A DNA stretch of 64,000 bases from Eledone cirrhosa (Eukaryota): contig OZ024752.1 of the NCBI GenBank assembly GCA_964016885.1, positions 1,116,001-1,180,000 of the forward strand, in the 5' to 3' direction. Positions 4,491-5,570 of this stretch are shown here, piece after piece. The translations under genes and the position numbers were made by a program. Numbering within the stretch: position 1 is the first letter of the stretch; each line of letters begins with the position of its first letter. Below the pieces are notes generated by a model that saw only the letters and a program-made list of their open reading frames with translations, was not told the origin of the DNA and did not search any database.

Positions 4491-4556
4491 TTTTATCTGA
4501 AGAGAACACAACATCCGTCCCAGGATGATGTTGTATTCGAAATACATATAATAAAA
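4491..4556 (+). ncRNA. Type I hammerhead ribozyme motif, family A
   Basis: TTTTAT-CTGAAGA-[GAACACAACATC..GATGTTGTATTC]-GAAA-TACATA-TA-ATAAAA: stem I 6 bp, long stem II, minimal stem III. Confidence 0.75.
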
Positions 4557-4594
4557 TATATGGAACTCTTATAACCATCTATATTTCATCTTTA

Positions 4595-5240
4595 TTATAT
4601 ATATATATATATATATATATATATATATATATATATATATATATATATATATATATATATATATATATATATATATATATATATGATATAATATATATAA
4701 CTCATGCATAATATATATAAATAACATTTATAATATATATATATACAACATATATATTATATATAAATATCATATATATAATATATATATAACATATATA
4801 TAATATATATATAACAAGTATAATATATATATAACAAGTATATATATATTATACTTGTTATATATATATTATATATATATGTATATATTATATTATATAT
4901 ATATGTATATAAATTATATTATATATATATGTATATATATATATGTATATGTATATATATATATATATATATATATGTATATATATATATATATATATAT
5001 ATATATATATATATATATATATGTATCTCTCTCTCTCTCTCTCTATATATATATATATGTATATGTATATATACATATATATATATATATATATATATAT
5101 ATAGAGAGAGAGAGATACATATATATATATATATATATATATATATATATGTATCTCTCTCTCTCTCTCTATATATATATATATATATGTATATATACAT
5201 ATATATATATATATGTATATATACATATATATAATATATA
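4595..5240. repeat. (TA)n compound microsatellite
   Basis: Read directly; interrupted by (TC)n/(GA)n blocks in both orientations. Confidence 0.95.
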
Positions 5241-5570
5241 AGATCAAAAGATGGTTAAAGGAGTTCCATGTATTTTATTATGCGCATTTCAAAAACAAAC
5301 ATCATCATGCAATAATATTTGTGTTTTCATCAGATAAAACAGGAGAACATGATATGAAGGCTAAAAAACACTTGTGGATAGTGCAGTTTTAAATCAACAT
5401 ATGTTGATTTAAAACTGCACTATCCACAAGTGTTTTTTAGCCTTCATATCATGTTCTCCTGTTTTATCTGATGAAAACACAAATATTATTGCATGATGAT
5501 GTTTGTTTTTGAAATGCGCATAATAAAATACATGGAACTCCTTTAACCATCTTTTGATCTTATATATTAT
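5231..5570. repeat. Perfect 340-bp palindrome with no spacer, centre 5400/5401
   Basis: AAATCAACAT|ATGTTGATTT at the centre; arms match out to ATAATATATA/TATATATTAT. Confidence 0.95.
5460..5530 (+). ncRNA. Type I hammerhead ribozyme motif, family A (mirror copy on minus strand at 5271-5341)
   Basis: TTTTAT-CTGATGA-[AAACACAAATATTATT..GATGATGTTTGTTTTT]-GAAA-TGCGCA-TA-ATAAAA; stem III ATGCGCAT is palindromic. Confidence 0.75.

Follow-up and report, generated by a model that had tools for sequence, protein, structure and literature searches.

What are the hammerhead-like motifs scattered over this stretch of the Eledone cirrhosa genome, and by what route did they get there? In the 64-kb window (the whole 64,000-nt stretch analysed here), three plus-strand motifs with intact CUGANGA and GAAA boxes lie at 4491-4556 (copy 1), 5462-5528 (copy 2) and 31652-31712 (copy 3), with predicted cuts after 4550, 5522 and 31706, and the triplet AUA in all three. 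The cores, the stem II arms, the cut positions and the triplet are as given in a preliminary description of this DNA; the spans of copies 2 and 3 fall 1-2 nt inside the originally proposed 5460-5530 and 31651-31713. A fourth hammerhead, at 5273-5339 of the minus strand with its cut predicted after 5279, has the sequence of copy 2 and, together with it, forms a perfect palindrome at 5240-5561 (161-nt arms, 0 mismatches). The bare core pattern has 11 matches in the window vs 1.47 expected. We consider it likely, with a probability of roughly 80%, that each motif is the hammerhead-shaped end of a Penelope-like element (PLE) of the Hydra clade, truncated at its 5' side and inserted into (TA)n, and that these ends were produced by a route that involves an RNA end at -124 and a longer-than-unit template. 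Here and below, unit coordinates (-/+) are nucleotides counted from the predicted hammerhead cut. The parts of these insertions in the window are:

4432-4488, minus strand: inverted tail fragment (+75 to +131) of the copy 1 insertion, matching the tail of the natural copy L098 at 95% identity over 57 nt
4491-4601, plus strand: copy 1, a 5'-truncated short-ended arm with a decayed hammerhead, ending in (TA)n
5240-5402, minus strand: short-ended inverted arm, unit -124 to +39, holding the fourth hammerhead
5399-5402, no strand: palindrome centre, four self-complementary bases common to both arms, each of which starts at the -124 hotspot
5399-5561, plus strand: direct arm, unit -124 to +39, with the copy 2 hammerhead
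5562-5656, plus strand: one-sided 95-nt tail, +40 to +134
29054-29155, plus strand: tail-only arm (from +41) of the copy 1 subfamily, 94% identical over 102 nt to the L098 tail
31558-31755, plus strand: copy 3, a short-ended arm between TA runs, right end approximate, 95% identical over 221 nt (some TA flank included) to L082

The palindrome with its tail is flanked by (TA)n. The tail contains two hairpins (5574-5599 and 5625-5644) that have equivalents in L098 and L075; the outer pairs of the first are, by eye, kept across three subfamilies, and free folding yields it complete in only one.

From the core and the pairing, the motifs are predicted to be type I hammerheads, with the CUGANGA/GAAA core, three helices and an NUH triplet; stem III is broken in copy 1. 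The Rfam search proposed earlier as a check did not recover them: none of the three motifs had a hammerhead match at E<=10, and among the 150 of 395 window matches listed there was no hammerhead, only miRNA and snoRNA noise. Free folding of single copies yielded stem II without the complete three-way fold (z -3.06, -0.29 and -1.46). The palindromic or near-palindromic stem III that had been claimed for all three holds for copy 2 (self-duplex -10.5 kcal/mol) and fails for copy 1, which is not self-complementary (+1.0 kcal/mol). In the cluster nearest to copy 1, 16 of 23 motifs have a palindromic stem III. Copy 1 is a decayed copy, because its octamer no longer self-pairs. Other hammerhead-like sequences were seen as well. 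A second family with a short stem II is present at 44978-45005 (plus strand) and 10219-10246 (minus strand), both adjoining TA runs; a third core match at 11382-11416 (minus strand) offers two GAAA options and may be a different or permuted hammerhead. Outside the window, L072 (615-671 and 1819-1876) carries hammerheads of a more distant family that shares the stem II shape and the octamer but has a GC-rich stem I.

Across the genome (3.0 Gb, 1,796 contigs), the full hammerhead pattern has 56,977 matches and the reversed control has none. With stem III left free, there are 51,867 matches, and 95 of the 100 listed keep, by eye, the alternating purine-pyrimidine octamer and the A at the cut. These are counts of motifs rather than insertions, many of which hold two, and unplaced contigs may duplicate some; with this reading, more than 50,000 motifs compare with up to ~9,000 per genome in the metazoan survey of Cervera and de la Pena 2014 (PMC4209133). 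The three window copies fall in three subfamilies, those of copies 1 and 3 having patterns with 450 and 1,047 genome matches, respectively.

The pairing of stem II is conserved across subfamilies. Clustering of 198 motifs placed in loci fetched from the genome gave 16 clusters. An unrelated motif and a near-duplicate were set aside, and each of the other 14 clusters is represented by one natural copy. Stem II is paired in 96 of 98 cells, compared to 74.5+-2.9 in shuffles (0 of 5000 reach 96) and 31-54 in slid controls; these counts come from related representatives, from a motif search with minimum thresholds of 6 of 8 pairs in stem II and 5 of 6 in stem I, and from loci most of which were located by patterns in which parts of stems I and III were fixed. 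The preliminary claim of stem II covariation is thus borne out. The stem has a fixed shape of 3 bp, a C.Y mismatch and an extension, with position 4 mismatched in 14/14 representatives. Its closing pair is G-C in 3 of the 14 and A-U or G-U in the other 11; A-to-G editing as a source of the wobbles was dropped by eye, the G-U pairs being G-C in a sister subfamily. In stem I, two distant representatives show compensatory swaps (TA/CG, AT/GC). A monomer cannot form the innermost pair of stem III, yet this pair is complementary in 13/14 (3 CG, 6 TA, 4 TG), in support of the dimer model. Judged by the aligned copies, the covariation is a record of selection on the parent lineages and not on the window copies, because the three copies belong to three subfamilies. 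The structural selection suggested previously therefore applies to the parents, with ORFs 35-80% identical to the reference protein described next, and does not extend to these genomic copies.

The regions between inverted motifs hold a coding element. In L031, it encodes an 821-residue open frame (P0001; first Met at 13, with Met 22 aligning with the starts of its relatives), and the 3' end of this intact element matches copy 2 and its tail at 98% identity over 259 nt. P0001 carries the motifs RW(T), DKT (SDKTN), YRDD, CxCX5C, LIY..YFG and CxxC..E..N..CxH; no CCHH was seen on motif inspection. The GIY-YIG endonuclease motif, LIY..YFG, lies C-terminally in the same ORF at residues ~698-717. 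The RW pair is followed by T, I or R across subfamilies, and relatives carry RWK or RWR; DKT recurs in L116, L118 and L134, and the same motifs are found in the ORF pieces of other subfamilies. Pfam recognized no domain in P0001 itself; in 26 aligned relatives, it detected RVT_1 in one and GIY-YIG in three, weakly (best E 0.0012). A sequence search of solved structures gave no real match, and Foldseek with the predicted fold (pLDDT 83) returned telomerase reverse transcriptases (RTs) as 7 of the top 10 PDB matches. A relative from Argonauta hians is 37% identical. The best 150 genomic matches to the P0001 endonuclease are 97-100% identical, several with open frames of 800+ aa, so the family appears to be young.

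The order of the unit is ribozyme, tail, 5' UTR, RT+GIY-YIG ORF and 3' UTR. In L045, the unit measures 3,709 nt from cut to cut, with the ATG at +219 and a 3' UTR of 1.1 kb. The 3' ends of copies are fixed at +39 or +134, inverted pairs carry one of each, and in tandem copies the tail continues directly into the 5' UTR. Pseudo-LTR tandems, an inverted 5'-truncated arm and a one-sided tail, all features of PLEs with a C-terminal endonuclease, are present. The insertions sit in (TA)n: flanks are TA-rich, and one pattern of the tail-TA junction has 7,471 matches.

The subfamilies of copies 1 and 3 are linked to similar proteins. That of copy 1 has ORF pieces 55-80% identical to P0001 upstream, and that of copy 3 is tied to Hydra-type ORF fragments 35-52% identical in L075, L084 and L118; the loci fetched yielded an intact full-length parent for neither. 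In L118, one Hydra-type insertion is nested within another of a sister subfamily. The ribozyme-bearing retroelement family proposed at the outset is therefore found, in the form of subfamilies with RT/GIY-YIG ORFs. Of the two hosts offered for it, the Penelope pseudo-LTR stands; the retrozyme finds no support for copies 1 and 2, whose subfamilies bear ORFs upstream, and for copy 3 the ORF link consists of fragments. The hammerheads resemble those of metazoan non-LTR retrozymes (Cervera and de la Pena 2020, PMC7229834) in being of type I and in short animal genomic repeats, but retrozymes are described there as non-coding head-to-tail repeats of 170-400 nt, whereas the copies here are truncated, head-to-head ends of a coding 3.7-kb unit.

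The defining features of the Hydra clade given in PMC8557442 are DKT in place of DKG, a CxCX5C linker, absence of CCHH, and CxxC and CxH around E and N. The element shares these, along with the single RT+GIY-YIG ORF, (TA)n targets, a type I hammerhead near the 3' end, pseudo-LTR tandems, an inverted 5'-truncated arm and a one-sided tail. Thus, the parent is a Hydra-clade PLE by every sequence feature tested except its length and the third residue of RWK. Most Hydra elements are under 3 kb (PMC8557442), a descriptive criterion that the ~3.7-kb unit exceeds owing to its long, 1.1-kb 3' UTR. It further departs from the clade in having RWT/RWI in place of RWK, an Asn-rich insert ahead of the linker, a tail of 95 nt, and tens of thousands of young copies. 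Its hammerhead differs from all 30 Hydra rows given in PMC8557442 by U15.2-A16.2 with AUA, a zero-loop octamer, and a stem II of 3 bp, C.Y and extension. It is like the minimal hammerheads of metazoan PLEs (PMC4209133) in its type I topology, small palindromic stem III and predicted dimer, and unlike them in the lack of G10.1-C11.1 conservation and in a stem III palindrome of 4 bp.

Several other repeats populate the window. A GIY-YIG fragment at 26809-27141 (minus strand; Pfam PF01541, E 5.9e-6) was ruled out as the parent: it belongs to a CCHH-type PLE and is 24% identical to the Hydra endonuclease. Its best 150 genomic matches are 85-90% identical, some with 775-aa open frames. A SINE-like dispersed repeat of ~190 nt, 80-97% identical, is found at 483-680 and ~15 other places, several as inverted pairs (further examples at 2708-3110, 9472-9661, 16333-16520 and 22303-22490). 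A disrupted RT region of LINE type, with a zf-RVT domain, occupies 1114-2329 (minus strand), and another palindromic repeat family lies in TA runs at 25228-25365 and 31304-31468, one of these with internal tandem repeats containing CTGATGA.

We traced where the copies begin. Among tail-ended arms (n=70), 16 start at -124 to -126, that is, 16 of the 34 long enough to extend to this point, and 8 begin at +37 to +46; among short-ended arms, 21 of 35 start at -123 to -127. These samples are the first matches on the largest contigs, with copies that are non-independent (tandem arrays, possible haplotigs), and the P values below are inflated for this reason. In the genome as a whole, the base immediately preceding -124 is non-native in 5,001 matches, and 93 of the 100 listed have unrelated upstream sequence. 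The control site at -118 gave 163 matches, with point variants making up about half of the 100 listed; its probe covers slightly fewer subfamilies than the -124 probe. The window palindrome itself is centred on -124. The subfamily of copy 3 has its hotspot at -129 to -137 (8 of 30 arms), and that of copy 1 a weaker one at -122 to -124 (3 of 31). An extra G precedes -124 in 41 of the 100 matches listed; since it is often attributable to the partner arm, it does not establish a cap signature.

Copies that reach the ORF start behave differently. The probe for the ORF start matches 265 copies, of which 92 were examined; 60 of these read through the upstream hammerhead intact. Of the 49 that pass -127, not one starts at -123 to -127 (Fisher P 4e-8). 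A genome-wide pattern for ORF-start copies beginning at -124 yielded three candidates, one true start and two point variants, and in the same check 47/92 pass -124 natively. Apparent stops between about -160 and -235 mostly reflect failed alignment across a pyrimidine tract. Thus, -124 is frequent as a start in short copies and almost absent in ORF-start copies, an asymmetry that likely reflects two RNA templates.

The starts of the ORF-start copies instead gather near the unit's own landmarks: 10 near +134 vs 2.4 expected (P 2e-4) and 6 near +39 vs 1.9 expected (P 0.015), counted in windows that were set after the list had been seen, at landmarks known beforehand, with two rows dropped as internal deletions. 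All five resolved copies starting at +34 to +40 end at +39, two of them cleanly unit-length, and two further ones are unresolved. The 5' stops near +134 show no correlation with the type of 3' end (7 short, 3 long and 2 unresolved of 12). Three same-strand pairs 3.9 kb apart were found among the 100 ORF-start matches listed. At the ribozyme cut, 5' ends show no significant excess (4 vs 1.65 expected, P 0.09, with one duplicated locus supplying two of the four); single copies that start there do exist (L161, L236 and L123).

These ends can be accommodated in a copying route modelled largely on Poseidon PAc from Anolis carolinensis, for which two RT start sites define the tail in vitro (Frangieh et al. 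2024, PMC11167929). The element's own RT would copy RNA that is uncut at the ribozyme in question, and the endonuclease would nick TA-rich DNA on both strands. RT would then start at +39 on one strand and at +134 on the other, and joining of the two cDNA ends would leave a palindrome with a one-sided tail. The element is like PAc in having two fixed 3' ends that bound the tail, AT-rich targets and uncut RNA as the inferred template; PAc, from a different clade, has its start sites inside the ORF and a tail of 30-40 nt, whereas here both lie in the 5' UTR, 95 nt apart. Fold-back synthesis of the second arm was also considered and is ruled out by L032, where the short-ended arm holds more of the ORF and only the tailed arm has the tail.

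At the 5' side, -124 probably marks a transcription start inside the pseudo-LTR, by analogy with Drosophila Penelope, which has its promoter there (PMC2377424). RT starting near the -124 end of such an RNA would yield stubs of 165-260 nt, such as the window palindrome. Copies from the -124 RNA should stop at -124, and ORF-start copies do not, so the latter would need a longer-than-unit template, which could be a circle made by the ribozyme or an RNA of several units. Cutting by the ribozyme is predicted to need a dimer or the help of protein, which would explain how templates with a single ribozyme could be copied uncut. Circular templates for more-than-unit copying have been proposed for PLE hammerheads (PMC4209133). 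A single transcript might then feed two routes, its capped -124 end giving the stubs, and a dimer-cut 3.7-kb circle, copied for one turn or more, giving the ORF-start copies. We hold this version only tentatively, with the odds somewhat against it, because the unit-length stops also fit an RT that meets bound protein upstream or stalls at the tail hairpins.

Does the ribozyme cut at all? The hammerhead could be kept for a non-cutting role, such as protein binding or RNA pairing via stem III, with negligible cleavage in vivo. The intact passage of the cut site in most arms as well as in those 60 of 92 ORF-start copies, the few 5' ends at the cut, and the preponderance of A-U or G-U over the G10.1-C11.1 pair that is highly conserved in PMC4209133 are all in line with this possibility, as is the Poseidon hammerhead, which is protein-assisted, need not cleave for insertion in vitro, and shows no RNA-seq ends at its cut site (PMC11167929). 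On the other hand, H17 is A in 14/14 representatives and N7 varies freely, as expected of a catalytic core (the core itself was required by the search), and related PLE hammerheads cleave as dimers or with protein (PMC4209133, PMC11167929). A purely non-cutting hammerhead seems unlikely to us, if still the most serious alternative to the -124 RNA end and longer-than-unit template.

Somewhat less probable is that -124 is not an RNA 5' end, and instead a first-pass RT stop imposed by RNA structure or protein binding, or else a microhomology at which the two cDNAs are preferentially joined. This site and the hotspot of another subfamily do lie at short self-complementary words, and microhomology may sharpen them; a second-round template would be unfolded and would lose the stop, which fits the 0/49. 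However, starts at -124 also occur in arms whose partner begins at another position or whose flank is plain (TA)n, no hotspot accompanies a second, similar word near -80, and no strong hairpin was seen, by eye, just upstream of -124.

The least probable alternative is that the stubs are a self-propagating non-autonomous family, SINE- or retrozyme-like, with a 260-nt unit comprising promoter, ribozyme and RT starts or with a fold-back palindrome transcript: the tail-ended arms (7,471 for one pattern) far outnumber the 265 ORF-start copies, and a stub starting at -124 would retain a downstream promoter, but the palindrome-centre junctions vary from copy to copy, which indicates that the stubs formed independently, the window stub is, as noted, nearly identical to an intact coding copy, and the head-to-tail arrays of short units typical of retrozymes (PMC7229834) were not seen in the printed contexts. 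Such propagation can coexist with stub formation from the -124 RNA.

Hammerheads in Hydra-clade elements have already been published, an octopus one included (Hydra-1_Obim from Octopus bimaculoides, in the supplement of Craig et al. 2021, PMC8557442), and Penelope elements are mentioned in cephalopods in PMC13282606 and PMC6962438, in whose available text this family is not described. What is new is the asymmetry at -124 between the starts of stubs and those of ORF-start copies. The available text of PMC11167929 discusses neither a 5'-end hotspot nor a circle for PAc, and our literature search found no PLE 5'-end hotspot and no demonstrated circular PLE template, either of which subscription journals, Repbase reports or supplements could hold.

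The hammerhead motifs are missed by Rfam and the protein by Pfam, and similar families may accordingly be undercounted in annotations. A family so young and abundant offers sharp coordinates for tests, namely, the predicted RNA 5' end at -124, the RT starts at +39 and +134, and the cut site, and the difference between stubs and ORF-bearing copies makes the copying route of the element testable. How pseudo-LTRs are rebuilt and what the PLE hammerhead does are stated as open questions in PMC2377424 and PMC8557442. If the circle is real, it would regenerate the pseudo-LTR, explain both the unit-length pile-ups and the missing stop at -124, and give the hammerhead a defined job.
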